DNA of 64,000 nucleotides, taken from contig JAJCXN010000003.1 in the NCBI GenBank assembly GCA_029263415.1, positions 3,514 through 67,513 of the forward strand, written 5' to 3'. The notes beneath the pieces were generated by a model that saw only the letters and a program-made list of their open reading frames with translations, was not told the DNA's origin and searched no databases. The translations under genes and the position numbers were made by a program. Source of the DNA: Acidobacteriota bacterium (GTDB taxonomy: Bacteria; Acidobacteriota; Thermoanaerobaculia; Multivoradales; Multivoraceae). This document shows positions 3,594 to 37,900 of the stretch, one piece after another; positions within the stretch are counted from its first letter, which is position 1, and every line of letters begins with the position of its first letter.

Positions 3594-3673
3594 GAGACAG
3601 AGGGAGACAGAGGGAGACAGAGGGAGACAAAGGAGTTGAACGAATCGGAAGAAAGAAGCAAGGACCAAACCTG
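3594..3673 (+). repeat. Dispersed intergenic repeat, copy A: tandem (AGGGAGACAG)x~4 followed by conserved core TTGAACGAATCGGAAGAAAGAAGCAAGGACCAAACCTG.
   Basis: The core recurs at 7522, 16078, 20139, 36541 (diverged) and 37866, always on the + strand. The tandem unit is read directly at 3594-3635. Confidence 0.7.
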
Positions 3674-3824
3674 TCCGGCCACTTGGTCGGGTGCGGCACC
3701 AAGCCTTCCTTGACGCTTTGTACATGAGGTACAGCAGACGACTCCGCGGTGCCTCGGCTTCTTCGGTGACAACGGTGCGCTGTGCCGAACGCAGAGGGAC
3801 AAACAACGCCAAGGGGCCACAAAG

Positions 3825-3870
3825 GTGGAGTCCACAAAAATGGAGTCCACAAAGGTGCCGCCCAAATGTT
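3825..3870 (-). repeat. Inverted copy of the 'GCTCAACATTTGG(C)GGCACCTTTGTG' sub-module of the repeat family, with a local GGAGTCCACAAA x2 tandem.
   Basis: The reverse complement of 3844-3870 matches 7611-7640 and 5272-5300 (...CTCAACATTTGG-GGCACCT-T...). Confidence 0.5.
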
Positions 3871-3901
3871 GAGCGAAGTGAGCTAAGCCAGTCTCAAGTG
3901 A

Positions 3902-4555
3902 TCACCCCTCGGCCACATCGACCCTGAGTGTCTGCATCACTAGAGGCTCACCGGGCGGCACCAACAACTGACCGACGCATTTCAAGAAGAAATCCTTCAC
4001 GGTGTTCCAATCGGCATCGCCCTCACCCGGCAGCTTTGCTTCGCGATCGGCATCATCGAAGTAGACCATTGCGCGCAACAAAAGCGAGTCGTTGATCGGC
4101 TGTCGGTACACCGTTCGGATCGCCCTGAGGGCGTCAGCGATGCCCTTCCTTTGATGCTGCAACGTCACATAGAGGTCAAAAAAGTCGCGACGTGTGCCGC
4201 GGTCAAGAATCGCGTGCAGCTTAGTCGCGAGGATGCCATCGACATTCAGCCGTCGATCCACCGTGAACTCCGCAATGTCTTCGAGCAAGAAGATAGAGAC
4301 CGGGATCGAGTTCCATCGTAAATGCACAGTGTCAGCGGATCGCTCTTGAACCTCGGTCTCTCCACTGCCTGAAAGAGCGGCCACCAACTGTTCGAGTGAC
4401 GCGCTCTCCCCTACTCCGAAGTCGACATCGCGGGTCGGTCGGTAAGGGCACAAGCAGCGAACCGCGTGGCCGCCGATCACAAACCAGTACGGCAACGGTT
4501 CGAGGACTGGCCGAAACTCCTGCGGGATGACGTCTTCGGGGCGTAGATCGCTCAC
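3902..4555 (-). CDS. Nucleotidyltransferase-fold protein, AbiEii-like (type IV TA toxin-like). Probable GTG start at 4555 overlaps the upstream stop (GTGA).
   Basis: Motif YWFVIGGHAVRCLCPYRPTRDVDF matches the hhhGG.A.....R.T.D.D NTase signature. The GTG at 4553-4555 shares nucleotides with the TGA of ORF 4552..5058, implying translational coupling. Confidence 0.5.
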   Translation of the reverse strand: MSDLRPEDVIPQEFRPVLEPLPYWFVIGGHAVRCLCPYRPTRDVDFGVGESASLEQLVAALSGSGETEVQERSADTVHLRWNSIPVSIFLLEDIAEFTVDRRLNVDGILATKLHAILDRGTRRDFFDLYVTLQHQRKGIADALRAIRTVYRQPINDSLLLRAMVYFDDADREAKLPGEGDADWNTVKDFFLKCVGQLLVPPGEPLVMQTLRVDVAEG

Positions 4556-5058
4556 CGACTGATGCCCCGCACCCGCAGCGTTGCATCCAGCAGACCGCGG
4601 CTGCGAGCCCGCCAGCCTGGCAGTCGAGCAGCTTGGTAGAGCGCGAGCCAAGGGAGGCCCGCGGCAAAGCTCAGTGCTTCTGAACCACCATAGTTGAAGC
4701 AATAGAAGGCGAGCTGGTGGCCAGGAACGGTCCCGCTAGCAGACACGTTGTAGAGAGTCTCTCTAGCTGGCGCTGGCAGTTCCGCGACCGGGAACGCACG
4801 CGTCGGCAGAAACGCCATCGCCTGGTAGATGGTTGCCCGCGCTGGCACTCGCAAGGACAGCGGCTCGCAGAAGGTTTGAAGTTCCGCCAAGACGTCTCGC
4901 ACCGGAGGCCGCTCCTGGCCGCTCAGTAACGACTCGAGCTTCGCTAGAACCCTGGGTTCTAATCGCAATTGTCCCCGGTCTCGCCGACGGCGTAAACCAT
5001 TGGAGCCAAAGCGTTTGGCGGCCCGATCGAACGACGCCTGAAGATTAAAGACGGACAT
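4552..5058 (-). CDS. Hypothetical protein, candidate cognate partner (antitoxin-like) of the downstream AbiEii-like NTase.
   Basis: ATG at 5058 (MSVFNLQASFDRAAKRF...). Same strand as the NTase gene, with a stop/start overlap. No recognisable domain. Weak RBS. Confidence 0.3.
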   Translation of the reverse strand: MSVFNLQASFDRAAKRFGSNGLRRRRDRGQLRLEPRVLAKLESLLSGQERPPVRDVLAELQTFCEPLSLRVPARATIYQAMAFLPTRAFPVAELPAPARETLYNVSASGTVPGHQLAFYCFNYGGSEALSFAAGLPWLALYQAARLPGWRARSRGLLDATLRVRGISR

Positions 5059-5236
5059 CTCCCCGAATAATACCAGACACCGGGCCAACCGATGGCATCG
5101 CGAGCGCCGGCCTCCGAGAGGCCGGGCCGGCGGGTTCGTACGCGGCCTACCCAGAGGTGCAGCTCTGGGCGGCCGCGGGAGCAGGGTCAATGCACCACAA
5201 CGCGAGTCAGGATCGATGGGTCTTTCGTTCAGAGCC

Positions 5237-5385
5237 AGCTTGGAGCTCCAACGATAATCTGGCCGCTCCAGAACCTCAACATTTGGGAGGCACCTGTACG
5301 TGGGCCTCTGTGGACCTCTGCGCCTCCGACTTGCCGTGCGTAGCTGCCGGACCATCTCTTCCGCTGTGTGGCGCTTTCTTTTCAT
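5237..5385 (-). pseudogene. Remnant of an IS3-family transposase OrfA N-terminus (HTH region), internally deleted.
   Basis: Translation MKRKRHTAEEMVRQLRTASRRRRGPQRPTYRCLPNVEVLERPDYRWSSKLAL resembles IS3-family OrfA (MKRKRFT.EEIVRKLRE...VCRELGVSEQTYYRWRKKYGG) but lacks the middle helix. The DNA is homologous to repeat modules at 7575-7642 and 3825-3870. Confidence 0.5.
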
Positions 5386-5584
5386 TGAGGACCCCTGTCC
5401 GATGAGCCCGAGGAAATTGCACACTAAACGGACAGTACGGATGCCCCAAGATCATCCGCCGATATGATCAGCCGCCTGGTCCACTTTGCCCTGAGGCTTA
5501 AGAAACAAGCTCAAGTAGTAGGGTTGCCCGAACGAACAGCTCTCCGGCGACAGAGCACTACCTTTCCCTCCCTCGCGAGCAGGT

Positions 5585-7525
5585 ATGACAACCGAACACG
5601 ATCTTCATCGTTCCGAACACAGGCTGTACCGCAGCCCGCTGATTCCTCTACGTTACAGGAACCTGTTGAGGCTGCGACTCTTGCTATTCCGAGAAGCCCC
5701 GAGCACACAAGTGCTCCAAGACCTTAGGCGCCCTCAGCTGCGCGGCCAGTTCTGGTTGCTCCGGTCCTACTTTGCCCGGCGGATCGTTGCGACGGTCCTC
5801 GAGAAGGCCCTGCCGTCACTTCTTGCAACGTGGATTGGCTTGTTTGCGCTTCACCAAGCGCTCTTGATACCCACATTTGCGAGCATAATTTTGGCGGTCG
5901 TATCAACAATCCTGCTTCTATGGATTTACTACCGTGCGATCGATGTCGACCAAATGTCTGGTCTCATGGTCGACCAAGTACCCTTCAGCAAGACCGTTCG
6001 CGTACTAGCTATTCTATCGCAGAATACACTAGTCAACGTCTCCCGGGCCAGACTTGGTCTTGACATACTGTTGGGAAACTTAGTCATCAAGTTAGCAGCT
6101 CCTCCAAAGAAGGACTTTCTGTTGCCGGTCATTCTGGAGGCAGAAAAGAAGTTCCGAAGGTACTCGGCCACGATCACGAAACAGATTCCAAAGATCACTG
6201 CTCTGGAACACCAGAAGATGGCCGCATGCGAGGCCATGGGGATACCCAAGCGTGCCCTATGCGACCACGTGCTCCACTACTCTCCCGCGCTACACAAGTT
6301 GAACTGTGACCGCTACTTTGAGGTTTCTCGGGAGTTGATCGACTTTGCGAAGATCGCGTCTCATGGCGGCAGCACTCCGGATCCGGATATCCGGGAGCAC
6401 CTGAAGGATCTGGAAGATCGCCGAGAATCCTACTCTCGACTCGTTGGAAGCCGTCATCGCTTCCTGATGGCGGTGCAGTCTCACAGCGACCTGTTAGAGG
6501 ATCTGTTGCGCCTTGCGCGAGTGAGATCGTCTACGACGGCATGTGGGCTGTACCTTAGACTTCTTTCCAGAATCGCGGCGGAGGGACTCTGCCTGGCAAG
6601 TGATCGAGAAGGTGGCCCCCGCAAGGTCGTCTCGCCCAAGCTGCACAAGTGGATGAGCGATCGCCTCGAGTTCGTCTATAGGACCCAACAAGCCTACGTC
6701 GGTGTCGACCTCCACAAAACCGCGATCAGAATCGCTCATGGTTTCACAAGCCCCTTCGAGGATTCAGACTGGACATCGCTTGCCAATGATGGGCGCGAAC
6801 TGTTGAGCGTAAAAGGAGCGACACTCGCGCCCGGCAACGAACCGCTTCTCAATTCAAGAGAGGTACACATCCAATGCCAACAACTGCTTGCCTTCGCCGA
6901 CGCCGCACGATTTCTGCTTGCCAGAGCCCAGGTCGAGGTCGGGGCCTCTCTAGGAGTTCTGCAGAAAGATGAGACTCCAGACTTCTACGTGTTACTCGGA
7001 ACCAGTCGCGTAGCTGCTGCGGCCCTCTCCACACTCAAAGGTGTCGAAGTGATCGTGGTGGCCGAGCGCGATCAGGCACACGAGGCGCTTGCTGTTCAAG
7101 AAATCATCGGCCAACGCCGCTCCGGTGCGCACGTTCGCATCGCAGGGAGAGGATTTCTCCCTGCCCTGCTTCCCAACAACGCCAAGGTTGCCATCCTTGC
7201 TGGGTGCGAGGCGTTCCTCGTGGACGAGAGTTCGACGGGTATTGAGGTTCTTTCCAAAGACTCTCAGCAAGAGTTCCGTCTCACCCTCGACGAGTTGGAG
7301 TCGCTGGCGGAACAGGACCGAATCTCCATCTGTAGCAGGGGCGTGGTTGCTGAACCCTTCAAGAAGGAAGATCTCGCCAGCAAGAAGGAAGACCTCATCA
7401 GCACGGCAACCCCGTCTAAGCGCTGGCAAGAGCGCTCGCATTTCGCGGCACTCTCAACAATTCGGCTTGAGGGCTTCTCTTGGTTGGAATCGAACAGTAC
7501 GAGTCGTTTAAGACAGGGGAGTTGA
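5585..7525 (+). CDS. Hypothetical protein (646 aa as listed) with N-terminal transmembrane helices and a large cytoplasmic domain of unknown function; visibly lower G+C than its surroundings.
   Basis: Long uninterrupted ORF. Hydrophobic segments LPSLLATWIGLFALHQALLIPTFASIILAVVSTILLLWIYY. AT-richer codon usage through ~5800-7100. No recognisable motif. True start uncertain (ATG 5585, or an internal ATG near 5953). Confidence 0.5.
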   Translation: MTTEHDLHRSEHRLYRSPLIPLRYRNLLRLRLLLFREAPSTQVLQDLRRPQLRGQFWLLRSYFARRIVATVLEKALPSLLATWIGLFALHQALLIPTFASIILAVVSTILLLWIYYRAIDVDQMSGLMVDQVPFSKTVRVLAILSQNTLVNVSRARLGLDILLGNLVIKLAAPPKKDFLLPVILEAEKKFRRYSATITKQIPKITALEHQKMAACEAMGIPKRALCDHVLHYSPALHKLNCDRYFEVSRELIDFAKIASHGGSTPDPDIREHLKDLEDRRESYSRLVGSRHRFLMAVQSHSDLLEDLLRLARVRSSTTACGLYLRLLSRIAAEGLCLASDREGGPRKVVSPKLHKWMSDRLEFVYRTQQAYVGVDLHKTAIRIAHGFTSPFEDSDWTSLANDGRELLSVKGATLAPGNEPLLNSREVHIQCQQLLAFADAARFLLARAQVEVGASLGVLQKDETPDFYVLLGTSRVAAAALSTLKGVEVIVVAERDQAHEALAVQEIIGQRRSGAHVRIAGRGFLPALLPNNAKVAILAGCEAFLVDESSTGIEVLSKDSQQEFRLTLDELESLAEQDRISICSRGVVAEPFKKEDLASKKEDLISTATPSKRWQERSHFAALSTIRLEGFSWLESNSTSRLRQGS

Positions 7526-7642
7526 ACGAATCGGAAGAAGGAGGCAACACCAAACCTGCCTCTGACGCGCCGGCTCCAGCTTGGAGCTGTCTCAGCAATC
7601 TAGCCGCTCCAAGAGCTCAACATTTGGCGGCACCTTTGTGTG
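7522..7642 (+). repeat. Dispersed intergenic repeat, copy B: core TTGAACGAATCGGAAGAAGGAGGCAACACCAAACCTGCCTCTG plus the 'CCAGCTTGGAGCT...GCTCAACATTTGGCGGCACCTTTGTG' module.
   Basis: Direct sequence identity to copies A, C and E (core) and to 5215-5300 (second module). Confidence 0.7.
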
Positions 7643-7691: not shown

Positions 7692-8186
7692 TCACCTCTC
7701 GTTGCGATCGATTTCGGCCAGGAGCTGGCGCAGAAAAGGTAGTTGGTACTGGTCTTTCGGCCGATCCGCCTGCTCCTTGGTCTCGATGATCTTCCCGAGC
7801 CCCAGGACTCGAACCCGGATTTCGTCGACATCCAGCATGTGACAGTGGTCGACTAGGGCCTCGAACGACAGACCATCGCCAACAGTCTTCAACAAGTCAA
7901 GACGCCCACATCGGGTCTCGAGAAGATGAATCCTCATTGACGACAACCTTTCTAGATCGGGTTCGATCCGTCGGCCGGCCGGATCCAAATAAGTTGCTTC
8001 GAGACGAACAAGTGCAGATGCCAGGCGAACGTGATTCTCATCGGTAGCTTGGTAGAGGATATCGAGGTCCAAGGTGGTCAATGGCGATCCTTGGAGGATG
8101 GCCGCGATGCCACCGACGATGATGAACTCGACCTCGTGCTCTACGAGAATCGCGAGAGCTTCGTCGAACTTAAGCTCGTTGGCCAT
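7692..8186 (-). CDS. Nucleotidyltransferase-fold protein (minimal NTase, AbiEii/MNT-like), downstream gene of a two-gene TA-like module.
   Basis: MANELKFDEALAILVEHEVEFIIVGGIAAILQGSPLTTLDLDIL carries the GG.A....G..R.T.DLD NTase signature. Overlaps the upstream small ORF by 17 nt. Confidence 0.6.
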   Translation of the reverse strand: MANELKFDEALAILVEHEVEFIIVGGIAAILQGSPLTTLDLDILYQATDENHVRLASALVRLEATYLDPAGRRIEPDLERLSSMRIHLLETRCGRLDLLKTVGDGLSFEALVDHCHMLDVDEIRVRVLGLGKIIETKEQADRPKDQYQLPFLRQLLAEIDRNER

Positions 8187-8430
8187 TGAGAGCCCGAACC
8201 TCTAAGAGCCGATTCATGAGGGTTTGAGCAGCCTGAAGCCGTTCCGTCGGCGTCAGGGCCAGCCGATCGCGAATCATGCTGATGTCCCCCCAATCAAGGC
8301 CCCACTCGGAGGCCTCTAGACCCTCGTAGTCAGGGGGAAGGTCGCTGGATTCCTCCTGGAGCCTTTTGTATAACTTGCGGTCCACTGGTGCATGATACCA
8401 GCGCCCGAGCGTCCCCTGAGATCGCTCCAT
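8170..8430 (-). CDS. Small protein (~87 aa), putative partner/antitoxin of the NTase at 7692-8186.
   Basis: ATG at 8430 (MERSQGTLGRWYHAPVDRKLYKRL...TPTERLQAAQTLMNRLLEVRALNGQRA). Paralogous to the C-terminus of ORF 9481-9765 (SAAERLAMVWPLTLQSWRLSGRDL). Start could instead be 8529. Confidence 0.4.
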   Translation of the reverse strand: MERSQGTLGRWYHAPVDRKLYKRLQEESSDLPPDYEGLEASEWGLDWGDISMIRDRLALTPTERLQAAQTLMNRLLEVRALNGQRA

Positions 8431-9019
8431 TGAGACAGACGAGTGGAGCGAATCGGGGTCGACTTCCACCCGCGCGGTCGCGCTCAAAAGAAGGAGTGGA
8501 TCGCGCGCAACGCAAAAGGTGCCGCGCATTTGAGGATGTTCGTCAATGGGCAAAGCTGATCCGTGCCGAAGCTTGTGCTCGGTTGTTGCTGAGTTGAAAT
8601 CGAAGGCGTGCGGAGTCAGGCCAGCGGAGTCAGGCAAGCGCGCCCTTGGTGTATCGCTATTGATGTCGCTGAGAGTAAGCGCACCAGCCACGCATTTGGA
8701 TCTAGGCTGATCGAAGCCCCAGACGAGTTACGCCCCAGACGGCGGGAGCCGCCCCAGAAACCACTCGGTACCCAATCTCGTCCAGGGTTCGTCCAGGGGT
8801 CAACAGATGAATGGCTCGATCAGCATGGCCGATCGCCCAGCTCCCGGTCGGCTCGAGATTGGGTAAAGCTACCCCGGGAAGCTTCCCGCAGGAAAAGGCG
8901 AAGGCGTCGCTAGCGTCGTCTAAGTGGCCACAAGCAACTCGAAAAGCACGCACGAACTCACGCTAGATTTCGCGCCACTCCTTTCTCGGAGTTCTGTTGG
9001 ACTCGTGGAATGCAACGCC

Positions 9020-9484
9020 CTATTCCTTCTCTCGCAGCAGGTCGGCGTCAACAAGATCCTTCGCGCGACCCGCGGCCAGTTTGTTGGCCAGCAGCTGTCC
9101 CCGCGCGAGCACCGGCAGCTCCATGCCATCGATCGACACTCGGATAGCGGTACGTTCTGCTTCTTCCCAGTCAACACCGCTGATAGCTGTCAACAAATCA
9201 ATTCTTCGGGGAGGAACTCCGAGCTGGTACACCGTGCCCGCAATCTCGAAATCAGCCGCGGTGACACCATGAATTTCGACTGGCGCACCGAACTCCACGA
9301 GAGCCTCGAAAGCACGCTGGGCATTCTCAGGCTCCGGAACGATCAACAGGTCGAGATCCCCGGTCGCTCGCGGCACTCCGTGCACGGCGAGAGCGTGCGC
9401 ACCTACGACTACAAACCTTACGTTCCCCTCAATCAGCTCGAAGAGCAAGTCTCGAAAGTCCTGGTGCAGGACCGGCTCGTTCAA
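9020..9484 (-). CDS. Nucleotidyltransferase-fold protein, paralog of 7692-8186. Probable TTG start at 9484 overlaps the upstream stop (TTGA).
   Basis: FVVVGAHALAVHGVPRATGDLDLLIV motif. Plus-strand TCAA at 9481-9484 is the reverse complement of TTGA, so a TTG start would overlap the TGA of ORF 9481-9765. That start gives an N-terminal length matching the paralog. Confidence 0.55.
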   Translation of the reverse strand: MNEPVLHQDFRDLLFELIEGNVRFVVVGAHALAVHGVPRATGDLDLLIVPEPENAQRAFEALVEFGAPVEIHGVTAADFEIAGTVYQLGVPPRRIDLLTAISGVDWEEAERTAIRVSIDGMELPVLARGQLLANKLAAGRAKDLVDADLLREKE

Positions 9485-18977: not shown

Positions 18978-19190
18978 CGGCCGGCTCCTTCATCCTGTCT
19001 ATCGTGTTCGATTGAATCGCCAGTATAGGACGGACTCAGCAAAAGATCGATGCTTGGACGGCGAGGGCCGGACCAGGTGTTGCGAAGCCTGGTTTTGTAT
19101 CTTCCTTGAAGACGCCGTCCTTCCAGCCAACCGCTCAAGACCCGTGCGCCCCGGATAGACATGCATGTGCATGCATCATACGATGGGCAC

Positions 19191-19831: not shown

Positions 19832-19884
19832 GAGCGAGATTGTTCTGTGGGTGACCATGTAGAGACGGCCACGTAGGGTGCGTC

Positions 19885-20005
19885 GGAGTGCTTTTCCCAT
19901 GTCCCAATAGACGCCGGAGGCAATGCAGGTCGCTAAAAACAGGACTATCTTGGATACGGCGACCCGACCGTCAAGTGATCTGCCGATCCGTTCGACACCT
20001 CTGAC
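19885..20005 (+). repeat. ~120-bp repeat, second family (leader-like); other copy at 43232-43345.
   Basis: GGAGTGCTTTTCCCATGTCCCAATAGACGCCGGAGGCAA...CTTGGATACGGCGAC...GATCTGCCGATCCGTTCGACACCTC aligns with 43232-43342 at high identity. Confidence 0.6.
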
Positions 20006-20163: not shown

Positions 20164-20170
20164 CTTCACC

Positions 20171-22510: not shown

Positions 22511-22642
22511 TGCTTTGGGTGTACAGCTTCCTGTCTTCTTGGGTTCCGTAGAGCGCAAGAGTTGGCGGCACTTGAAATCCGTGAGGCAGGAGTCAGGCGT
22601 AGTTCGTGGCCGAACCCTAGCCGCTACTGACTCGGCTCAGTA

Positions 22643-25800: not shown

Positions 25801-28800
25801 GCTCCGAGCCTTTCGAACACGATCAACATCGGTGGGCGATTCACCTCGATCACTCAACTCATCGCCGACCAAGACGGTACGTTCTACGCCATGGACGACC
25901 GGCGCCTGATGCACTTCGACGTCTTCGGACGCTTGTTGGGCTTGATCTTCACGCGGCCCGATGACGACGATGTCAACGGCAACATTGCTCGTCTCGAAAG
26001 TCCGAGCGGCAGCAACTGGGTTGATCTTGCCCGCTTTGGTGACGACTTCTACCTACTCAATCCAGGAGACGAACACAATTCGGACACGATACAGCGTTTC
26101 CGTTTCAACGATGGTTTCGCTGACTTCGACCTAATGGGAAGCGCCGGCCTTTCCTCGGCAGACGGCGGCCAGGCCCTGGCAGCCGAAGACAATGGTCTGC
26201 TGGGTTTGGGAAGCCACGCTCTAAAGTACTACCCGAATGGCGACCTGACCAACCCAGACCTACTTGGCGATTGGGACGATGGCTGCGATGGCGACTTCTG
26301 CAATGTGACCGAATTCGCTCAGATCATCAACGCCAACACCAACGAGCCATTCGTTGATGTTGCAGGTTATGACGGAACCGTCTTACTGAGTGACGGGCAG
26401 CGGGTCCACGCTTTGACCCTTGCGGGCGCTTACCGAGGATGGATCGGCAGTTGTTCTGCTGGCAGCCGCTGCGATGTCGGCACCGGGATGACCACTGAAT
26501 TTTGCACCGACTGCACTGAGTCTGGCCCGTCAATTGGCGACCAACTAGAGGTCAACCCGAGCAAGGGCTACTTGTATGTAGGCAACGGCAACGACCAGGT
26601 GTTGCTGTTCGCCTTGGATGACAACGGCAGTTTGCGCACCGAGATCTCACCGGACGGAGATCCGAACAACTTGCTCACGTTTCTAGAGGCGGGTGACTTC
26701 ACATCGGTCAATGCTTTTGCTGCTCTTGGTGACCACCTTTACGTGGCCGAGGGGTCGCCGCTGAAGCGAGTCCACTTCTTCGAGGTCGACGCCTTTGGCA
26801 ATGTGGAGTTGGATCAGGCAACGGTGACTTATACGCCAGATCCGGGGTACCTCGGCTCGGATCAAATTGGGTTCAATGTTGACGACGGCTTGGACCTGGG
26901 CCAACCGGCGGTGGTCAGTCTGGTTGTTGTTGATGACCAGACTGCTCCTGCAATCACGTGCCCTGCTGACATCACTGTTGAACTCACTCAAGCTGGCGGC
27001 GCGAAACCGCTCAATACCGAGACTGGGGACTTCGGTAGCAGGCAGTTGGCCGACTTCATCGAAGCTGGTATTGCTTCTGACAACGTCACTCTGCCGGCAG
27101 TAACGTTGACCGTTGATGTTGCTGGCTCCGCACTTCCGGCTGTCTTTCCTCTTGGCACTACGACCGTCCGATTTACTGCCACTGATGCTACTGGTTTGGA
27201 CACGCGTTGTACGGCGGATGTCAGTGTCGTCGACACAGTGCCGCCCCAGTTGATCCTCGACTCGCAGCTGAGGGTGGTTGAAGCCACGGGTCCGCTGACT
27301 TCGGTTGACTTGGTTGCTCCGGCCGTGATCGAAGTCGGTGGCGGCGTCGTAATCAGCAATGACGCTCCGGCTTCTTTCCCACTAGGTGACACCGTGGTGC
27401 GTTGGCAAGCGATTGATCTGAGTGGCAATGTCGGCTTCGCGGACCTCTTGGTGCAGATCGTAGATACCACGCCACCAGACATCGATCCTCTGCCAGCGAC
27501 GGTGATAGCCGCGGTCAATGGACACTCGAACACTCTGCAGTACTCCCAACCGACGGCCCATGATTTGGTTTCCGGCTCTGTAGAAGTTGCTTGCTCTCCT
27601 GGGGATGAAACGATCGAGCAGCCAGCTTTGCCGTACAGCGTCTATTGCCGTGCGTTCGATGCGAGCGAGAACGAGAGCAGCAGTGTTGTGCAAGTGGAGA
27701 TTAGGCAACTCGATGGCGACGATGATGGCATCGCCGACGTGATCGACAGTGTGCCAGCCGGGGCGGCTCGGCTCGGCCAACCGATGTTTAGCGACGTCGG
27801 CCTGGGCGGAGTGACGCATGGTGACCTAGCCGGCGACACAACGGGGTTGGCAATGTTGGACGCGCTGCAGGAGTCTTGGGGCGTCCGTGCCTCCGTTGCG
27901 CTGGCATCCACTGGGGAGGTGGCGGCCTGCGCCAATGAACTCAACATCAGTGAGCTAACTCCAACGATTGAAGATGGCGAGACGGTGCCCGGTGTTGTTG
28001 ACTTCTCCTGCTCTCCGGCGGCGCTACGTTTGATCAACGGCTCAGCAGCCGCGCGCTTCATCTTGCCCAACACGCTTTTTGTCGACTCTCAAGTCGAGAC
28101 TGGGCACGAGTTGAGTTTGCAGGGCTTTGTGGCCACGGCGTCCGCAGAGAACCCTGCCCCTCTCAGCCTAGTAGTTGAGAACTACCCAGATCCGGTCTTA
28201 CTCCAACCTGGGCAGTCAATCGACCTGTCGAGTGTTGCGATTCCGCTGTCTAGCCTCGCCATCACCAACACAGATGACTTGGCGGTCGCGGTACCGGGCC
28301 TTGGCCTCACATATACGATCAACGTCTCGAATGCTGGCCCCAATCCGGATTTTGCGGTCTCCGTCGCCGACTCATTTCCAACCGCGCTGGCCTGCAGCTG
28401 GACGAGCGTTGCCGACGGTGGTGCGACCGGCAACAGCAACAGTTCGGGCCTGCTGAACGATTCATTGAACATGCCAGTAGGAAGTTCGGTCGTTTATACA
28501 GCGGTCTGCGCCATCGACTCCTCAGCCACCGGGACGCTAACCAATACTGCTCAAGTGACGCCGTCAGGAAACGATCCTTCACTGGCAGACAATGTTGCGA
28601 TAGATGACAACACTGAGCTGACCCCGCAGGCAGACGCCGCAGTTAGCGTTGGTGATGGAACGACGATGGCCACCCCTGGAGAGACCACCCTTGGCTACAC
28701 AATCATCGCCACGAACCTCGGGCCTAGCGCCGACCCCAACCTGCATCTAACCGACGTCTTTCCCAATTCGCTCGATTGCGCCTGGACCAGTTTGGCCATC

Positions 28801-30351
28801 GGCGGAGCGACTGGTAATGGCAATGGAGTGGGCGATATTGATCAACTACTCAACCTGCCAGTGAACAGTTCGGTCACCTACAACGCACTGTGCGATATCG
28901 ACCCATCGGCTTTGGGTACGCTCACCAATACTGCGGTGGTGACGTCATCAGTGGCTGACCTGGTTGGCCTCAACGATGTTGCGACCGACGGCGACACCGA
29001 GCTCACTCCACGAGGCAATCTGTCAGTGATGCTCGCAGATTCGGCCGATCCGATCGCAGCAGGGCTGTCGTTCTCCTACTACGTGACGGTAAGCAACAAA
29101 GGACCGTCCACTGCGCGTGGCGTCATGGCTACCCTTGACCTCGCTGATGCGTTGACTGTGACTGCTACCACTGGTTGCGTCAACGACCCGCTCGGATCAC
29201 CGGCTTGCGAATTGAGTGAGCTGCTGCCGAGCGAATCAGTGGAGGTGGTGGTCGAGGTTGCGGTTGAGCCGGGGACTGAAGGCCCGATGACGAGCACCGC
29301 TAGTGTGACTACCAGCACAAACGAAACAGACCTCAGCAACAACTCATCGAGCGAAGACACCCTCGCCGACGCCACCGCTCCAGCGGTGACTCTGGTGGCT
29401 CACGTCAATGATTTGGGCAGCGTCGAAATCAGCGAGTGTTTGTTTACTAGCCAGTCCGTGTATGAGCTAGAGGTCACATTCAGTGAAGAGATGTGGGATC
29501 CCGATTCGAACGTGGAGCCGGGTGACGTCACCAATCCACTCAACTACCGACTGGTGGCGAGCGGCCCTGATGGCGACTTCTCAAGCGCAACGTGTGATGG
29601 GCCACTTGACGACGATGTCTTGCTCGCGATCGAGAGTGTGAACTACGACAGCGCGAACTCCACTGCTACGATCCATCTCGATCCACCAATTGCGCTCGGC
29701 GACTCGCTGTATCGCCTAAAGGTCTGCAGTACTCATCGAGACCTCGGCGGCAATCCGCTCGAAACGGACTCGGATAGCGCATTCCAGCGTCTCTTTCGAG
29801 TTGAGCGCACGACGATGCTTCGGAACGGTTCATTCGATTGTACGCTTGACGAGTGGGAAGCCACCAGCCTGCTGCCGGAGGAGATCGTGCACAGTTCAGA
29901 AGACGTCGACGGGTCAACAGTTTCTGGGTCGGCTCGCGTGGTGAATCTGTCTGGCAATGCCGACTTTGCGCTAGCGCAGTGTGTCGACACGATCGGCAAC
30001 ATCGAACAGACGATTCGGCAACAGACACGTGTCTCGTTGCCGTCGCCGTCGGTCTTGACATTGAGTAGATCGTGCGAGTTCTTCTCCGAAACTGCTTGTA
30101 CGGGCATCAGCCTAGTCAGCGATTTCTCGTTGACGTTCTTGGAAGATACCGCGGGGCTGTGGGAACCCATGCAAGGGATTCTGGCGGCCCCGGCAGAGGC
30201 TGACTCCTTGCGGTGCACGTACGACATTCGATCTCCAAGTGGAGCACCCTTCGAGGTGTTCATTGACAGTTCCAATCTGACGACGACCCCGCTCTTTGCC
30301 GATGGGTTTGAGTCCGGGAATACCGCGGCTTGGTCAGGGGGTGTGTTGTGA
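22855..30351 (+). CDS. Giant (2498 aa) secreted surface/adhesin-like protein with HYR (hyalin-repeat) domains, DUF11 'conserved repeat' domains and Ig/cadherin-like modules. Carries the C-terminal F.DGFE.G.T..W tag.
   Basis: Signal peptide MATATSFYTKVQGTLALLLVTCQVASAQ. HYR signatures (TDNCDQAP...AAEDASGN, DQTAPAITCPADITV...TATDATG). DUF11 blocks (LTYTINVSNAGPNPDFAVSVADSFP...TLTNTAQV). D-rich calcium-binding-like DGDDDGIAD. Ends ...LFADGFESGNTAAWSGGVL. Confidence 0.85.
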   Translation: MATATSFYTKVQGTLALLLVTCQVASAQLSASTPVALGSNSSTKESERSRANEVALANYNGFERDQLEGMARELLSEQDLAQIATLSDDLTQDLLNRGLTTNEAVGACALTGNIIFTWGASNLTSFGAIGIVKAFFSGGLLTNKLASIHKYLIAVVAGSTIMTACPPFLVPGDFSTYSRQEKLDWALSRGFAATKADDLLLSVDEPTNPGSCQRTVQMDLLVDPEYSGEVNRFEVTDPGTLPPLPGIALIEPFGTFPSPAGDLNSGFLQPGLFSAISFGLRLFASSTPPPQVIDTSDSLSLFPGGLTDNLAWAMDIMPDLSPFFEDPDRLSWYTNPFESWQPPVTVLDLPGDAVGMQLEVGSSEIRFQGRGENVTLEDLLGLGGEDAFFETLGDVFGLDGPVDLGFNLNPYTEFFNSLTYEQEVTVTEGFAPEFVVLTTEVVPSISPNPIPIVQSLVYEALFPTGVDRGLIQPYETAGGLTITDNCDQAPRLIDNVPPHVPLGISYHSVAAEDASGNRSSDYWVKIEVIDTIPPDLPPTDAVTVEVPAGSTAPLGPYICTDYLCQINDPVPLFPPPFFDLASLAPQYGCTVSNTIGADVPCEAASVPIGNASTAVPPSVIRWTATDAAGNSSSIDQLVAFREVGSNQRPAATAASYTIAANQPTTIPLAGTDGDLDPLDFLLTMPPVFGDLEISAEPTFQTRFSLNGTLQRLTGVVQYRVSVNAITRYLVADTANRRLIEVDGNGALTNMLFLGQVQPHAIASYRRPSVVEQISNSVFSNQSAIADSLVIADVSTNKLHTLVWDSTLGYVPSTGIPIPSAFGNTDPVMSIGFDIADTPGGSFGDQLLIVRQGDGVASTESFNGNFGDGFALTPDSAWNPSGGSAWTIQAEKYAIGPDCDDTAGGYYQVVHEFAHGSIGAGDRIFRRRNHSPSSLTRIDFPSLSLDAAVTGMFVECTGSNSVNLVLADNEGQRLQRWRQTFNNAPSLSNTINIGGRFTSITQLIADQDGTFYAMDDRRLMHFDVFGRLLGLIFTRPDDDDVNGNIARLESPSGSNWVDLARFGDDFYLLNPGDEHNSDTIQRFRFNDGFADFDLMGSAGLSSADGGQALAAEDNGLLGLGSHALKYYPNGDLTNPDLLGDWDDGCDGDFCNVTEFAQIINANTNEPFVDVAGYDGTVLLSDGQRVHALTLAGAYRGWIGSCSAGSRCDVGTGMTTEFCTDCTESGPSIGDQLEVNPSKGYLYVGNGNDQVLLFALDDNGSLRTEISPDGDPNNLLTFLEAGDFTSVNAFAALGDHLYVAEGSPLKRVHFFEVDAFGNVELDQATVTYTPDPGYLGSDQIGFNVDDGLDLGQPAVVSLVVVDDQTAPAITCPADITVELTQAGGAKPLNTETGDFGSRQLADFIEAGIASDNVTLPAVTLTVDVAGSALPAVFPLGTTTVRFTATDATGLDTRCTADVSVVDTVPPQLILDSQLRVVEATGPLTSVDLVAPAVIEVGGGVVISNDAPASFPLGDTVVRWQAIDLSGNVGFADLLVQIVDTTPPDIDPLPATVIAAVNGHSNTLQYSQPTAHDLVSGSVEVACSPGDETIEQPALPYSVYCRAFDASENESSSVVQVEIRQLDGDDDGIADVIDSVPAGAARLGQPMFSDVGLGGVTHGDLAGDTTGLAMLDALQESWGVRASVALASTGEVAACANELNISELTPTIEDGETVPGVVDFSCSPAALRLINGSAAARFILPNTLFVDSQVETGHELSLQGFVATASAENPAPLSLVVENYPDPVLLQPGQSIDLSSVAIPLSSLAITNTDDLAVAVPGLGLTYTINVSNAGPNPDFAVSVADSFPTALACSWTSVADGGATGNSNSSGLLNDSLNMPVGSSVVYTAVCAIDSSATGTLTNTAQVTPSGNDPSLADNVAIDDNTELTPQADAAVSVGDGTTMATPGETTLGYTIIATNLGPSADPNLHLTDVFPNSLDCAWTSLAIGGATGNGNGVGDIDQLLNLPVNSSVTYNALCDIDPSALGTLTNTAVVTSSVADLVGLNDVATDGDTELTPRGNLSVMLADSADPIAAGLSFSYYVTVSNKGPSTARGVMATLDLADALTVTATTGCVNDPLGSPACELSELLPSESVEVVVEVAVEPGTEGPMTSTASVTTSTNETDLSNNSSSEDTLADATAPAVTLVAHVNDLGSVEISECLFTSQSVYELEVTFSEEMWDPDSNVEPGDVTNPLNYRLVASGPDGDFSSATCDGPLDDDVLLAIESVNYDSANSTATIHLDPPIALGDSLYRLKVCSTHRDLGGNPLETDSDSAFQRLFRVERTTMLRNGSFDCTLDEWEATSLLPEEIVHSSEDVDGSTVSGSARVVNLSGNADFALAQCVDTIGNIEQTIRQQTRVSLPSPSVLTLSRSCEFFSETACTGISLVSDFSLTFLEDTAGLWEPMQGILAAPAEADSLRCTYDIRSPSGAPFEVFIDSSNLTTTPLFADGFESGNTAAWSGGVL

Positions 30352-31256: not shown

Positions 31257-31435
31257 GCTCTCGGTCCGCTAGCGGAGCGCTTTCAACGCAGGGCACAGCG
31301 CCGGTCGCAGGTGGTTCGAGTACAGTTTGAGTCGCAGCCGGCTGGCGTCCCTGGGGCGTTGTCGATAGCCTGGCGGCCAGATTCGCTGATCGCGCCAAGC
31401 TTTTGGATTCGAGTACGACTCGGAGGAGAGCGAGA

Positions 31436-32041
31436 TTGCTCACGGGCAAAGTACTCATTGCTGAAGATCATCCCATGTTTCGAGATGGCCTTGAGATGAT
31501 TGTGCAAGAGCTAGCGACCGAGTGCCAGGTGCTTTGTGCCGGTGACTTTCAGACCGCCTGGAAGCTGGGGCAGCAACACCCTGATCTAGATCTTTTGTTG
31601 CTAGATCTGAAGCTCCCTGGCACCCAAGGCCTAGATGGTCTGACCCGGTTTCGCGAGGCTTTTCAACTTTGCCCGATTGTTGTGATCTCGATGCTGGAAA
31701 TGGCTGGCAACGTGCGCAACGTGATGGATCTTGGAGCCAACGGGTTCATTGCGAAATCCACACCCCGCGATGGGCTCATGGCGGGGCTTCGCCAAGTGCT
31801 TGAGGGTCACATCGTGACCATCACCGACGACCCCACGCCGGTCGTTAAACTGACGCCACGTCAGGTGGAAGTGCTCGGGCTGGTCAAGGTGGGCAAGTCG
31901 AACAAGGAGATTGCCAAGATTCTGTTGATCGCGGACTCCACCGTGCGGGAACATCTGTCCGAAGCGATGTCGCTGCTCAGGGTGAGTAACCGAACCCAAG
32001 TGGTTCTGGAGGCACAACGCCTGGGATTGATTCTCGAATAG
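31436..32041 (+). CDS. LuxR/NarL/FixJ-family response regulator (REC + LuxR HTH). TTG start at 31436 after GGAGGAG (the ORF track begins at TTG 31403).
   Basis: KVLIAEDHPMFRDGL...LLLLDLKLPGTQGL...GANGFIAKS is a REC domain. ...LTPRQVEVLGLVKVGKSNKEIAKILLIADSTVREHLSEAMSLLRVSNRTQ is a LuxR-type HTH. Confidence 0.8.
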   Translation: MLTGKVLIAEDHPMFRDGLEMIVQELATECQVLCAGDFQTAWKLGQQHPDLDLLLLDLKLPGTQGLDGLTRFREAFQLCPIVVISMLEMAGNVRNVMDLGANGFIAKSTPRDGLMAGLRQVLEGHIVTITDDPTPVVKLTPRQVEVLGLVKVGKSNKEIAKILLIADSTVREHLSEAMSLLRVSNRTQVVLEAQRLGLILE

Positions 32042-32107: not shown

Positions 32108-32335
32108 TTAGATCAGACTTGTAGAGGAACAGGTGGAATCGGTGACAGCAGATCGCTGCGAACAGAGGAACAAGGCGGTCGCCCGTTCTGCAAGCACCAG
32201 CAGTTTGGCCACTGCGGCCTGCAAGTGCGGAGAATCACCACACAGTTCTTCGAGACGCGCCGTGCGTTGGTCCTGGTCGAGACTGACCATTTCAGCAACG
32301 ATTGAATAGACCCGTCCCAAGGGCTCCTTCACCAC
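32108..32335 (-). pseudogene. Duplicated 5' fragment (promoter region + first ~36 codons) of the Ser/Thr kinase gene.
   Basis: MVKEPLGRVYSIVAEMVSLDQDQRTARLEELCGDSP matches the STK N-terminus MVKETWERVRSIVAEVVSLDQDQRAARLEELCGDSP. DNA 32218-32445 aligns with 18860-19090. Confidence 0.6.
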
Positions 32336-32489
32336 CGACCGGCTGCTTCATCCTGACTACCGTGTTCGAGTGGATCGACAGTCTGGGACGGACTCGGCGA
32401 AAGATCGATGCCTTGAGGGCGAGCGCCGGACCAAGTGCGGATCTCTACTCCCCTGCTCCCCTGCTCCCCACTCCTGTTCCCTCCGGCTC

Positions 32490-32861
32490 CTAAATCAGCT
32501 CAAGATCTGGAACATCTTCGAAATCCCGGCGGTTCAGCGTCCACAGTGCCGCGTTGGCCGAGATCGCTGTCGCCGCGATCGCGATGTCAGCCGCTCTCCG
32601 CCGCGGCTTGCCCAAGGCGCGAAAGGTGTCAGCAGCCAGCAACGCAGCGCGTGCGTCGAAGACCAAAGCACCTTCACTCGGGAACAGCAATTCTTGCAGC
32701 TCTAACTCCCGTGGACTCCTCGGTCCTCGTCTCCATTCGTACAAGACCAGAGAAGGAAGCTGAAGCCGCTCTCCATCTCGAACGAGCTTCTCCAACTGCT
32801 CTAACTCGGAGCGATCGCCGCACAGCGCCCGAACGAGTGCACAGGTGTCGAGCGCGATCAA
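32490..32861 (-). CDS. vapC: VapC PIN-domain toxin (intact copy).
   Basis: MIALDTCALVRAL...ADIAIAATAISANAALWTLNRRDFE. ATGA overlap with the upstream antitoxin stop. Confidence 0.75.
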   Translation of the reverse strand: MIALDTCALVRALCGDRSELEQLEKLVRDGERLQLPSLVLYEWRRGPRSPRELELQELLFPSEGALVFDARAALLAADTFRALGKPRRRAADIAIAATAISANAALWTLNRRDFEDVPDLELI

Positions 32862-33127
32862 CGAACCGAGAATCCTTGCCGTCGTTCGGACTGGAGCTCT
32901 TCCAGTTCGTGATCTACATCCGCTTGGTTCGAAACGCTCGAGAGCTTCTTGAACCTCGCAAGCGCCGCCAGCTGCTCCTGCCGTTCGGCCTCGGTGAGCC
33001 GGTCACAACGCGCTTCGAACTCTAGAACTGCCCGTCGCACAACAGCACTCTTGGATTCACCCAGCCTCTCAGCGGTCCGGCGAAGTGCTGCGTCTGTCGA
33101 TTGGTCGATGGAAAAGGTGGCACGCAT
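32858..33127 (-). CDS. vapB: Ribbon-helix-helix VapB-type antitoxin (intact locus copy).
   Basis: ATG at 33127 (MRATFSIDQSTDAALRRTAERLGESKSAVVRRAVLE...). Near-identical to 11732-11974 with a 9-aa longer C-terminus. Confidence 0.7.
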   Translation of the reverse strand: MRATFSIDQSTDAALRRTAERLGESKSAVVRRAVLEFEARCDRLTEAERQEQLAALARFKKLSSVSNQADVDHELEELQSERRQGFSVR

Positions 33128-33199
33128 AACGGTTGCATAATAGCATAACGAGATAGAATTCGGCACCAGAACACTCCGCCCCATCAACACAGCACAGCA

Positions 33200-33330
33200 A
33201 TGCAGTTGCTGCAAGCCGGGCGTCAATATCATCTCCATCGCCACGTTGTTGGTGCCAGCAAAGGCTTACCAGCAGAGGAGTCGGACGCCTTTACAACACT
33301 AACCGCTGACAACCCAGGCCCACCATGAAG
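33200..33330 (+). pseudogene. Tyrosine-recombinase C-terminal fragment (second copy), at the end of the duplicated vapBC segment.
   Basis: MQLLQAGRQYHLH... aligns at DNA level with 12050-12100 (MHLLQAGVDITTIA). No upstream integrase body. Confidence 0.35.
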
Positions 33331-35471: not shown

Positions 35472-35547
35472 GTGTGACCGTTTTTAGAGATGAGTGGCGA
35501 GCCGCAGACTGGCAGCAGGATAGCTATCGAGTTGACCCTCGCGCGAA

Positions 35548-35600
35548 GCTTCGTGTTTCAGCTTCGTGCTTCGGCTATGTGCTTCGGCTATGTGCTTCGC
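35548..35600. repeat. Short imperfect tandem repeat (GCTTCGGCTATGT-like units).
   Basis: Direct reading of 35557-35596. Confidence 0.5.
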
Positions 35601-35876: not shown

Positions 35877-36421
35877 TGTCGACAACCAGATCCGCCCTCG
35901 GGGCCACTCTCCTCATCTCGCTCGCAAGCGCGACGGCCTTCTCCCAGGAGGCCTTTCATGCAGGTCCGCTCATTCCCGACTACGGACGGATTGCGACGAT
36001 CGACAGTGACCTGGAAATCCCAAGCGACCTGATCCTGCAACTTGCCTTCGACGTCAGCACCGGCAGCGGTGGCAGCCTCAACCGGAGCCTCGACAGTGTG
36101 GCGCGCTTTCTCAACATGCACGTAGAAGCAGGTGTCAGTCCAGAGCGCCTGCAGCCGGTGGTGGTCATCCACGGTAGCGCGGCATTCGACGCCCTGAAGG
36201 CCACGCGCTACGACGCCCAGTACTCGGGGGAGACCAACCCCAACGCCGGGCTGATCGCAGCACTGCTCGCCAACGGCGTCAAGATCTACCTCTGCGGCCA
36301 GAGCGCGGCGGCACGAGGGATCGATAAATCCGATCTACTTCCTGGCGTGAAGTTGGCGCTCTCCGCCATGACTGTGCACGCCATGCTCCAGCAGCAGGGG
36401 TATTCGCTGAATCCTTTCTGA
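35877..36421 (+). CDS. Secreted DsrE/DsrF-like (YchN-like) family protein.
   Basis: ATG at 35877 after AAGGAG. Signal peptide MSTTRSALGATLLISLASATAFSQ. Conserved-Cys context IYLCGQSAAARGI and the VVIHGSAAF block resemble the DsrE/DsrF fold family. Moderate confidence only. Confidence 0.45.
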
Positions 36422-36519
36422 TCAGGTCCTAGACTCGGCGGCTTGCTTCGAACTAGAAATCATCGTTAGGCCAGCAACTGAAAAGACACAGTTGTACGAC
36501 CTAATAGCCGACCCGGATA

Positions 36520-36637
36520 AGCAGACCCGAGGCAGAAGAGGCAGAACGAATCAGAACAAGGAAGCAAGACCAAACCTGCCTCTGCTGGGCTGGCTCGATC
36601 TCAACCTCTTCCGGGGGCATTCTTGAGCAACGCGGCC
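36520..36637 (+). repeat. Dispersed intergenic repeat, copy E (diverged core CAGAACGAATCAGAACAAGGAAGCAAGACCAAACCTGCCTCTG + conserved 3' extension), preceded by a GAGGCAGAA-like tandem.
   Basis: About 95 nt align with copy C. Lies directly upstream of the 5'-truncated Fic gene. Confidence 0.7.
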
Positions 36638-36706
36638 CGAGGGAGCGCGAACACAGACCATCGAAACCGCCCTTTCGACGAGGGTAGGAAGGCGAAAACG
36701 TAGTAA

Positions 36707-37712
36707 ACAAGGGGAAGACCGTGGTATTTCGCCTCATCAAACACCACGTTTCTCGAAGGTCCCTCCTCATTCGAGCCAGCGCATGCCATCCTCCAACCAC
36801 ATTTCCTGGACCATCTCACCTTCTCCGCCGAAAGTGTCGCCTCTTTGGTGAAGCTCGGTGAGTTCAAGGGGCAGCAGGAACTCTTTCGCCGGCAGCGCCC
36901 CGAGATCCTGACTGCACTCCGGACTCGCGCATCGATCGAGTCAACCGAGTCATCTAACCGCATCGAAGGCATCGTCAACTCGCGCAAGAGAGTTGAGCTG
37001 ATCGTTGAACGGAAGGCGGAGCCCGAGACCCGCTCCGGGCAAGAACTCGCGGGCTATCGCGACGCCCTTCAACTCATCCGCAAATCGGCTCTCGACATGC
37101 CTTTTCGTGAATCCGTCTTGCTCCAGCTCCACAAGATTCCCTTCCGCTATCAGCCAGCACGTGGAGGTCGTTGGAGGCCCACCGACAACTCCATCGTGGA
37201 GCTCGACGCTACCGGCAGGATCCCCAAGTTGAGATTCGATCCTACGCCTGCGATCGCAACATCTCAGGCGATGAATGACCTCACAACCGGGTTCACAGAA
37301 GCCCTAGCCCGCGGCCCCCTACGATCCGATGGTGCTGATTCCGCTGGCGGTGCTGGACCTCTCCTGCATCCACCCCTTCGCCGATGGCAACGGTCGCATC
37401 AGTCTCCTAGCAACCCTCCACCTGCTCTATCTCAGTGGATACGACGTTGGCCGACTCATCAGTCTGGAGCGCCTGACTGAGAACACAAAGGTGGGCTACT
37501 ACCGCGCTCTGCAGCGCAGTTCGCTGGGTTGGCACGAAGACCAGCATGATCCTCTGCCTTGGCTGCAGTATTTATGGGGCATCCTGCTGGCGGCTTGTCG
37601 TGAGTTCGAAGAACGGGTGGGCGAGATCGCAGGTGGACCGGGAGCCAAGTCGCGGCAGGTTCGCGCCGCGGCCCGACGTCGCCTTGCACCGTTCTCGATC
37701 TCAGAGCTCTAA
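36707..37712 (+). pseudogene. Fic/Doc-family protein gene (HPFADGNGR), apparently 5'-truncated (no in-frame start before TTG 36845) and carrying a frameshift in a C5 run near 37313-37320.
   Basis: Frame 1 reads ...ILQPHFLDHLTFSAESVASLVKLGEFKGQQELF...TEALARGP. Frame 2 continues DPMVLIPLAVLDLSCIHPFADGNGRISLLATLHLLYLSGYDVGRLISLE..., which contains the Fic motif HPFxDGNGR. Removing one C at GGCCCCCTAC restores a continuous Fic ORF. Confidence 0.6.
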
Positions 37713-37865
37713 CTCGACTGTCCGGGCGTTAGTCGGGAGACCGTGCGTGGAGTGCTCCAAGCCATGCGGGATGAAGGAGATCTAGAGCTGAAGGGTAAGG
37801 GTAGAGGATCCCGGTGGGTGGTCGTGCGCTGAAACACGCGGTGGGTTGTTGATGACAGATGAGTT

Positions 37866-37900
37866 GACGAATCGGAAGAAGGAAGCGCGCTCCCTATTCC
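37866..37900 (+). repeat. Dispersed repeat, copy F (partial core TTGACGAATCGGAAGAAGGAAGC...).
   Basis: 18/20 match to the core. Same orientation. Immediately downstream of the Fic pseudogene. Confidence 0.5.

Follow-up and report, generated by a model that had tools for sequence, protein, structure and literature searches.

Introduction

Mycobacterial interspersed repetitive units (MIRUs) measure 40–100 bp, with the whole MIRU element serving as the tandem unit, and in E. coli the bacterial interspersed mosaic elements (BIMEs) have a role in 3′-end formation or Rho-dependent attenuation. Repetitive extragenic palindromes (REPs) are palindromes of 20–40 bp that carry an unpaired GTAG or CGTC tag, have stems of 5–13 bp and occur mostly as head-to-head dimers, a role in termination and mRNA stabilization having been proposed for REPs generally (PMC3733652). 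Here a dispersed repeat is described from a 64,000-nt stretch of DNA, referred to as the window, from an Acidobacteriota bacterium (Thermoanaerobaculia; Multivoraceae; assembly GCA_029263415.1, contig JAJCXN010000003.1). It forms a family of short, non-coding interspersed repeats specific to one lineage, found in an uncultured Thermoanaerobaculia-like acidobacterial genome; the repeat is genuine, its orientation is fixed and its terminal unit is, unusually, self-amplifying. The reading preferred here, which is put forward tentatively, is that the copies, which occupy non-promoter intergenic sites in a region rich in toxin-antitoxin (TA) and defense genes, may be ends or relics of non-autonomous mobile DNA specific to the lineage. 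All inference draws on ten copies in one genome, seven of a main family and three of a second family.

The Main Family and Its Anatomy

An earlier note on this DNA had reported six copies of a core repeat, and the repeat is real. A profile built from the six copies recovers all of them on the + strand with nhmmer E values of 8e-12 to 3e-7 (3625–3666, 7511–7552, 16067–16108, 20127–20168, 36530–36572 and 37854–37893), and an 18-mer from the core gave five + strand matches with at most three mismatches where 0.02 were expected. The core common to the copies is 40–100 nt long and the DNA flanking them is mutually unrelated. A seventh + strand copy, X, was found at 8433–8496, interrupted by a 31-nt insertion after CGAATCGG. 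With all copies aligned from the outside inwards, every copy shows a module of ~32 nt reading AGACAGAGG-AG-TTGAAC-GAATCGG-AAGA, beyond which family-specific sequence runs on for 15–90 nt. The outermost ~10 nt of the module, here termed the unit, has the consensus AGACAGAGGAG on the + strand and TCCTCTGTCT on the other strand, and is followed by the box TTGAAC-GAATCGG-AAGA. The main-family copies are:

3585–3690, + strand: copy A, unit GAGACAGAGG ~4–5x (3585–3633), box GTTGAACGAATCGG, core to ~3675
7503–7565, + strand: copy B, single unit (TAAGACAGGGGAG) with box and core
8433–8496, + strand: copy X, unit and box (AGACAGACGAGTGGAGCGAATCGG), GC-rich 31-nt insertion (8457–8487), then AAGAAGGAG; profile E 0.047
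16049–16166, + strand: copy C, unit AGACAGATG.. x2, box, long core
20049–20168, + strand: copy D, unit AGACCGAGG x6–9 (20049–20138), box ATGAACGAATCGG, short core
36520–36627, + strand: copy E, unit GAGGCAGAA x2, degenerate box (CAGAACGAATCAG), long core
37845–37893, + strand: copy F, single unit, box with 1-nt deletion (GTTGACGAATCGG), short core

One end, the unit and box, is common to the copies while the inward reach of homology is variable, extending from the start of TTGAACG for ~27 nt in D and F, ~40–45 nt in A and B and ~88 nt in C and E, the long core of the last two being ~91% identical over 73–84 nt. Similarity ignores neighborhood, in that the best match to C is E, at a distance of 20 kb, and the best match to B is C; this points to dispersal rather than local duplication.

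The variable head in front of the box is the element's own terminal ~10-nt unit amplified 2–7 times. The units are near-identical inside one copy and different between copies (GAGACAGAGG, AGACCGAGG, AGACAGATG.. and GAGGCAGAA), indicating that the amplifications were independent. A tandem head had been described at every copy; this holds for four of the six, with A (10 nt x4), D (9 nt x6.3) and E (9 nt x2) identified by Tandem Repeats Finder (TRF) and C (12 nt x2) by eye, but not for B and F, which have one unit each. The (CTCTGA)n array that had been counted among the heads is pyrimidine-rich on the + strand and is part of a neighboring inverted element, copy H of the second family. Similarly, the purine and GGA richness ascribed to the whole family is seen in A and D only (73 and 69% purine, with 6 and 7 GGA in ~110–125 nt), whereas B, C, E and F have 49–58% purine and 4, 4, 1 and 3 GGA, respectively, the background being 1.5 GGA per 100 nt. 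The head of copy A (3594–3633) has the form G3-N7-G3-N7-G3-N7-G3 on the + strand, a canonical G-quadruplex motif present in no other copy.

A coding function was considered and rejected, since the reading frames differ between copies through indels and the unit periods (10, 11 and 14) are not divisible by three. The gene map was based on open reading frames (ORFs), Pfam matches and a codon-usage score, and ORFs that cross copies have negative coding scores. In keeping with the intergenic location claimed earlier, six of the six copies first reported lie outside confident genes; copy B nonetheless holds the stop codon of the 646-aa ORF 5585–7525, the TGA (7523–7525) falling inside its box such that the final codons of the ORF are supplied by the repeat. 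At 8586–8640 there is a degenerate core-like stretch (GAGTTGAAATCGAAGGCGT) followed by (GCGGAGTCAGGCMA)x2.2, on the side opposite to the main-family arrangement, and this stretch has a 31-nt inverted match (77%) to 12020–12050.

Short tandem arrays are not confined to the repeat. TRF returned 35 rows in the 64-kb window (overlapping rows included) vs. 6 weak rows in 21.6 kb of a relative (contig L018, see below), and this greater density suggests a genome-wide tendency to slippage. Other short-period intergenic arrays lie at 35547–35599 (AGCTTCGTGCTTC)n, 43066–43084 (CTAA)4.8, 50066–50100 (GATCAGATGTCTGA)2.5 and 56184–56239 (CACGACCGA)5.6.

A Second Family With the Module Inverted

A second, diverged family was found independently by a repeat search of the window:

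9869–9970, minus strand: copy G, read on the + strand as ..GATCTGCCGGTTCGTTCCAC then (CACGTCTCATT)x2.3; E 6e-21 to the H/I/G model
19875–20048, minus strand: copy H, 130-nt conserved body, box CCGATCCGTTCGAC, then (CTCTGA)n/(CTCTGACTAC)n
43225–43390, minus strand: copy I, 25-nt box identical to that of H, then (ACCTCCGATTSKCM)x2

Copies H and I share 80% identity along 131 nt, and comparison of the two revealed no codon periodicity. The second family carries the main-family module inverted (..CTGCC-GATCCG-TTCGAC-ACCTCTGACT), followed by its own tandem units. The three best opposite-strand matches of the main-family profile are exactly G, H and I, each in the same register and next to its own tandem units, and the reciprocal second-family profile matches five main-family boxes. 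Over the first 34 nt of the module, A–D and X share 20–23 of 34 positions with the second family, and X and G are mutual best partners. Judged by these comparisons of sequence, with reciprocal profile matches in register and identity at this level, the kinship of the two families is not due to chance. The rule that copies always lie on the + strand is therefore true of the main family (7/7) but not overall, as the diverged copies G, H and I carry the module the opposite way.

Gene Neighborhood and Orientation

The genes of the region comprise two AbiE modules, VapBC, two ribbon-helix-helix (RHH) TA modules, a Fic pseudogene, two CHAT genes and a Ser/Thr kinase (STK), a typical accessory cargo of TA and defense functions. 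The two AbiE-type TA modules (AbiEii nucleotidyltransferase) lie on the minus strand at 3902–5230 and 8702–9798 and are unrelated in DNA, the second appearing to be frameshifted or degenerate. An IS3 element that had been placed between A and B was not found, the block consisting of AbiEii/AbiEi and the 646-aa ORF, which has no family match. No transposase, recombinase, integrase, REP-associated tyrosine transposase (RAYT) or reverse transcriptase was recognized in the window, and the ORFs of no assigned function that lie near the copies matched nothing in Pfam, NCBIfam, PADLOC or PDB.

Copy A lies between the AbiEii stop (3902) and the start (3421) of a DHOR-family gene (1814–3421), and X lies downstream of the degenerate AbiE-2 module and upstream of the coding part of ORF 8170–8432. 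Copy C is 46 nt from the STK stop (16212), the end of D is 3 nt from the stop codon of a 7TMR-DISM hybrid histidine kinase gene (20171–22558, minus strand), E lies between DsrE and the Fic pseudogene (both + strand) and F is 30 nt from the stop of ORF 37924–38928 (minus strand). In the second family, G occupies the divergent intergenic region between AbiEi-2 and ORF 10310–11602, H begins 44 nt past the vapC stop and I lies between the start of a CHAT gene (42880) and the stop of ORF 43475–44833. Copies H and D stand tail-to-tail in the vapC/kinase intergenic region with their repeat tails abutting; they are the only inverted neighbors and belong to different subfamilies.

Among the main-family copies, B, D and F are in convergent regions, with gaps of 170–340 nt, and A, X, C and E are in co-directional regions, with none in a divergent region; B, and likewise the H and D pair, fill almost the entire gap between convergent genes. 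Orientation relative to transcription is uninformative, being automatic in convergent regions and sense in 3/5 co-directional cases. Relative to the chromosome, all seven main-family copies point the same way (two-sided p ~0.016). A steady fall in cumulative GC skew along the window places their pyrimidine-rich strand on G-rich (leading-strand) sequence. With ten copies this leading-strand association is a lead only.

A third motif, M2, consists of an unrelated box (CTCAACATTTGGSGGCACCT) and has a like build, a box with an amplified adjacent unit:

3817–3875, minus strand: M2 copy 1, tail (CCACAAAGGTGGAGT)x2.7
5256–5320, + strand: M2 copy 2, then (GTGGRCCTCT)x2.1
7597–7640, + strand: M2 copy 3, directly following and contiguous with copy B

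The first two form an inverted pair around the AbiE-1 (AbiEii/AbiEi) operon. Read on the minus strand, M2 at 5256–5295 resembles a −35/−10 promoter (TTGAGG-17-TATCGT).

Direct pairs of copies (A/B, C/D and E/F) had been proposed to bracket discrete cassettes. No test favored this arrangement, and inverted pairing is at least as good. When a + strand copy is paired with a second-family copy, X and G flank AbiE-2, C and H flank STK and VapBC, and F and I flank a three-gene CHAT operon. This left/right pairing of the two families, with M2 around AbiE-1, is suggestive but unproven.

Several other features of the region were recorded. A 487-nt duplication (11605–12090 and 32759–33241, 92% identical) covers an RHH (CopG-type) antitoxin gene and part of its partner. 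A 239-nt duplication (18841–19079 and 32199–32437, 86% identical) lies upstream of the Ser/Thr kinase and vapB in its first copy and downstream of a LuxR-type response regulator in its second, the latter being followed directly by (CTCCCCTG)x2.8 at 32448–32469. Large CHAT-domain proteins are encoded on the minus strand at 12779–15631 and within 37924–42880, the second being the last gene of an apparent three-gene operon whose two further ORFs, of 334 and 342 aa, gave no Pfam, NCBIfam, PADLOC or PDB match. A giant 2498-aa ORF (22855–30351, + strand) with DUF11 repeats and an HYR domain probably encodes a surface protein. The hybrid histidine kinase adjoining copy D has 7TMR-DISMED2/7TMR-DISM domains in a LadS/RetS-like architecture, and a NarL/GacA-family response regulator is encoded at 31403–32041 (+ strand).

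Distribution Beyond the Window

The context of copy A was confirmed independently, as Logan contig L017 (SRR15505518), from a separate assembly, is 100% identical to window positions 412–4751. Searches covered 596 Gb of GTDB representatives, Joint Genome Institute (JGI) metagenomes, IMG/VR and PLSDB. Exact degenerate 20–22-mers gave only single chance matches without extended similarity in the GTDB representative genomes, JGI metagenomes and IMG/VR, and PLSDB contained no blastn match to the long elements. The six-frame translations of the core, concatenated and used as a protein query aimed at spurious ORFs over other copies, matched nothing at E<=10. The closest relatives by the DHOR-family protein (80% identity) are annotated as metagenome-assembled genomes of Thermoanaerobaculia. 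In the nearest of these (GCA_028066595.1), the 21.6 kb surrounding the DHOR orthologue contain no copy of the repeat and few tandem repeats, and synteny is limited to DHOR itself. On the strength of these absences the repeat is lineage-specific as far as visible.

Interpretation

The unrelated flanks, the similarity that takes no account of neighborhood, the one shared end with its variable inward reach, the two end-types (main and diverged family) with an inverted ~32-nt module in common, the accessory genes and the lineage restriction are together best matched by dispersal of short mobile or recombinogenic DNA, then decay and local slippage. On this basis the copies would be solo ends of mobile DNA, and possibly inverted end pairs bracketing TA/defense operons, that spread by insertion or illegitimate recombination and not by segmental duplication. 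They would persist in intergenic regions downstream of genes, where the harm is small, with the terminal unit expanding through replication slippage and the fixed orientation of the main family arising from strand- or replication-coupled insertion. If transcribed behind a gene, the C-rich, G-poor strand might also act as a Rho-loading or weak terminator sequence.

A number of points weigh against an origin in mobile DNA. Flanking direct repeats of 5–8 nt give no sign of target-site duplication, the mean longest being 6.9 nt vs. 7.0 nt in the non-cognate control, and the window holds none of the transposition or recombination genes listed above. The module common to both families could equally be a protein-binding site used both ways, and the amplification of the unit may be a genome-wide mutational habit and not a property of the element. 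Concerning the pairing of left and right ends, there are seven copies of one type and three of the other, C and H are not specially similar and nor are F and I, and any two intergenic elements will bracket whole operons. Mobility is moreover inferred from the sequence pattern of ten copies only.

A more specific version is speculative and quite unlikely: the two end-types would be the left and right ends of an undescribed class of acidobacterial mobile cassette carrying AbiE, VapBC with STK and the CHAT operon, whose insertion would leave no target-site duplication and have a fixed orientation coupled to strand or replication, with the 10-nt unit re-copied in transposition (by templated "stutter" at a nicked end or by tailing of the kind seen in short interspersed nuclear elements, SINEs) and the M2-bounded AbiE-1 as a second member of the class. 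Were the copies the ends of mobile cassettes, they would show how TA/defense operons are shuffled in Acidobacteriota and would represent an unusual end architecture that combines fixed orientation and a self-amplifying terminal unit with the lack of target duplication. To our knowledge the Acidobacteriota, abundant and barely studied genetically, have almost no small mobile elements described.

Alternative Explanations

Two alternatives place the function of the copies in RNA. The earlier note had compared the + strand tracts with CsrB/RsmX/Y/Z small RNAs (sRNAs), which would sequester a CsrA-like protein through GGA motifs, but the repeat is not a protein-sequestering sRNA gene and this explanation is now highly improbable. 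It draws on the 6–7 GGA of copies A and D and on the LadS/RetS-like kinase beside D together with the NarL/GacA-family regulator, a circumstantial link to Gac/Rsm-type signaling. Set against this, GGA enrichment is absent from B, C, E and F, and an Rfam cmscan of both strands of the whole window gave no match at the gathering score, with two unrelated chance matches elsewhere in the window at E<=5. Folding revealed no conserved stem-loops that present GGA: 100-nt segments of either strand did not outperform dinucleotide shuffles (z −1.1 to +1.8 for the + strand), with one exception, the minus strand of E (z −2.1), and folding A, B, C and E to a consensus gave −6.9 kcal/mol with a positive covariation term and no covariation. 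A consensus scan, a weak test, detected no sigma-70-like promoter or + strand terminator at any copy, three copies lie in the short gaps between convergent genes, and no CsrA was present among the window ORFs scanned. The same scan identified a hairpin with a T-rich tail on the minus strand of A, C, D and E and none on the + strand, in keeping with a cis-acting 3′-end signal made up of a weak hairpin and a U/C-rich tract, the tandem units, C-rich, G-poor and unstructured, forming a periodic Rho-loading (rut-like) site that would halt transcription past the upstream gene. Such a signal is possible though unlikely. It would account for the position of A, B, X, C, D and F (minus strand) and H (+ strand) 3–250 nt behind the end of a co-oriented gene, for the tail-to-tail H and D between the convergent vapC and kinase genes, each sense to its own gene, and for the C/G ratio of the pyrimidine strand, which in A, B, D, F and H reaches the 98th percentile of the window or more. 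Several copies also fold worse than shuffles, as expected of a loading site. However, nothing can be read from orientation relative to transcription, with E and I antisense and G in a divergent region, C, E, X, G and I are not C-rich, and the association of C richness with sense orientation reaches p ~0.08. Hairpin energies, and the complementarity of the conserved pyrimidine stretch to the upstream arm, are within background, and a terminator would leave the conserved 30-nt box downstream of the hairpin unexplained.

The remaining alternatives place the function in the DNA itself. That the copies are recombination sites bounding cassettes (integron attC, Xer/dif or att accretion), with the units as arm-type recombinase sites, appears improbable. 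The uniform orientation of the seven main-family copies, the parting of operon-sized TA/defense blocks by the copies, the agreement of the box GTTCAAC with the attC R′ sequence at six of seven positions and unit periods of 9–12 bp, near one helical turn, are as such sites would have them, whereas the window has no integrase or recombinase, the box has no RYYYAAC partner or stable hairpin and is not dif-like, having no AT-rich dyad, and the "cassettes" would span 0.9–16 kb with several genes in both orientations. The units are also variants of the element's own end and not foreign arm sites. The helical periodicity of the units would equally suit an array bound by a regulator, a nucleoid- or partition-like protein or a polar roadblock to replication or transcription, with the module as primary site and the 9–12-bp units as auxiliary sites. 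The module is conserved in two otherwise unrelated families in both orientations, there is no conserved RNA structure, and the one-sided amplification fits polar stalling beside a bound protein. This proposal is nevertheless purely inferential and to be regarded as improbable, with no candidate protein identified, copies that avoid promoter regions and differences between the units of different copies that are awkward for a single binding specificity.

At present the copies are of use mainly as an annotation caveat, because spurious ORFs cross them, and possibly as a strain marker of the variable-number tandem repeat type, the function of the repeat being unproven. Were the C-rich strand a portable Rho-loading or terminator module, it would be a case of a repeat family supplying 3′-end signals in a high-GC genome.

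Comparison With Known Systems

The suggestion that the repeat is a miniature inverted-repeat transposable element (MITE) or REP-like was borne out in spirit, as the copies are dispersed, non-coding and lineage-specific with unrelated flanks, but not in its particulars, there being no internal terminal inverted repeats (TIRs), target-site duplication or tagged palindrome. Like MITEs and other miniature elements (Correia, ERIC/RU, Nezha and the Tn3-derived TIMEs), the repeat is 50–170 nt long, non-coding, multicopy (7 + 3 copies), lineage-specific and intergenic, with unrelated flanks. Copy B supplies a stop codon to a neighboring ORF, and the ~32-nt inverted module recalls left and right inverted repeats (IRL and IRR). 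Unlike them, single copies have no internal TIR, weak arm pairing being seen in B, C and E only with energies and duplex scores within background, and the inverted module is common to two families and not found within a single copy. There is likewise no detectable target-site duplication and no parent transposase in the window, one end is shared, the terminal unit is tandemly amplified and the main subfamily is strictly co-oriented.

The likeness to REPs, BIMEs and REPINs lies in the extragenic, multicopy location behind genes and in a possible role in 3′-end formation or Rho-dependent attenuation. In contrast to these, there is no significant palindrome and no tag (the box has CGTT in A–E, and CGTC in F only, through its deletion), the copies are singletons and not head-to-head pairs of one kind, and no Y1 (RAYT) transposase is encoded in the window. 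Mycobacterial MIRUs and the staphylococcal STAR/SIRU repeats are similarly dispersed and intergenic, with a variable tandem unit beside conserved sequence and a consistent orientation; they differ in that here only the terminal 9–12 nt of a larger element are amplified and the unit varies by locus.

With integron attC sites and clusters of attC sites lacking integron-integrases (CALIN) the repeat shares co-orientation, a position on the 3′ side of TA-rich modules, a length of 50–140 nt and the GTTCAAC heptamer, which matches the R′ consensus GTTRRRY at 6/7 positions. The R″/R′ pair, the bottom-strand hairpin with its extrahelical bases and IntI are all missing. The nearest partners, GGTTGAC in C and GGTTGAG in E, lack the AAC triplet, D and F have no partner and the fold is not significant. 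In place of an array of short single-gene cassettes, copies are spaced 0.9–16.4 kb apart with several genes on both strands, and there is no integrase in the window. The 3′ tails of eukaryotic long interspersed nuclear elements (LINEs) and SINEs, as an analogy only, also combine a common end with a variable simple tandem repeat, variable truncation and an orientation bias, whereas here there is no reverse transcriptase or flanking duplication and the tail units are the element's own terminal 10 nt; we know of no bacterial precedent for tailing of this type. As for the CsrB/RsmX/Y/Z sRNAs, the GGA-rich purine tracts of A and D are alike, while the covariance-model match, the repeated hairpins with GGA loops, the promoter and the terminator are all missing and GGA is not a trait of the family.

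Other likenesses were rejected by inspection, namely the tRNA T-arm, the 38-bp inverted repeat of the Tn3 family, dif and the LexA GTTC-N7-GTTC box, as well as sigma-70, sigma-54 and extracytoplasmic function (ECF) promoters, integration host factor (IHF) and DnaA boxes and layouts of a Shine-Dalgarno sequence with a start codon. Since the copies depart from the definitions of a MITE in the strict sense, a REP and an attC site, the family is filed in the broad class of bacterial small interspersed repeats.

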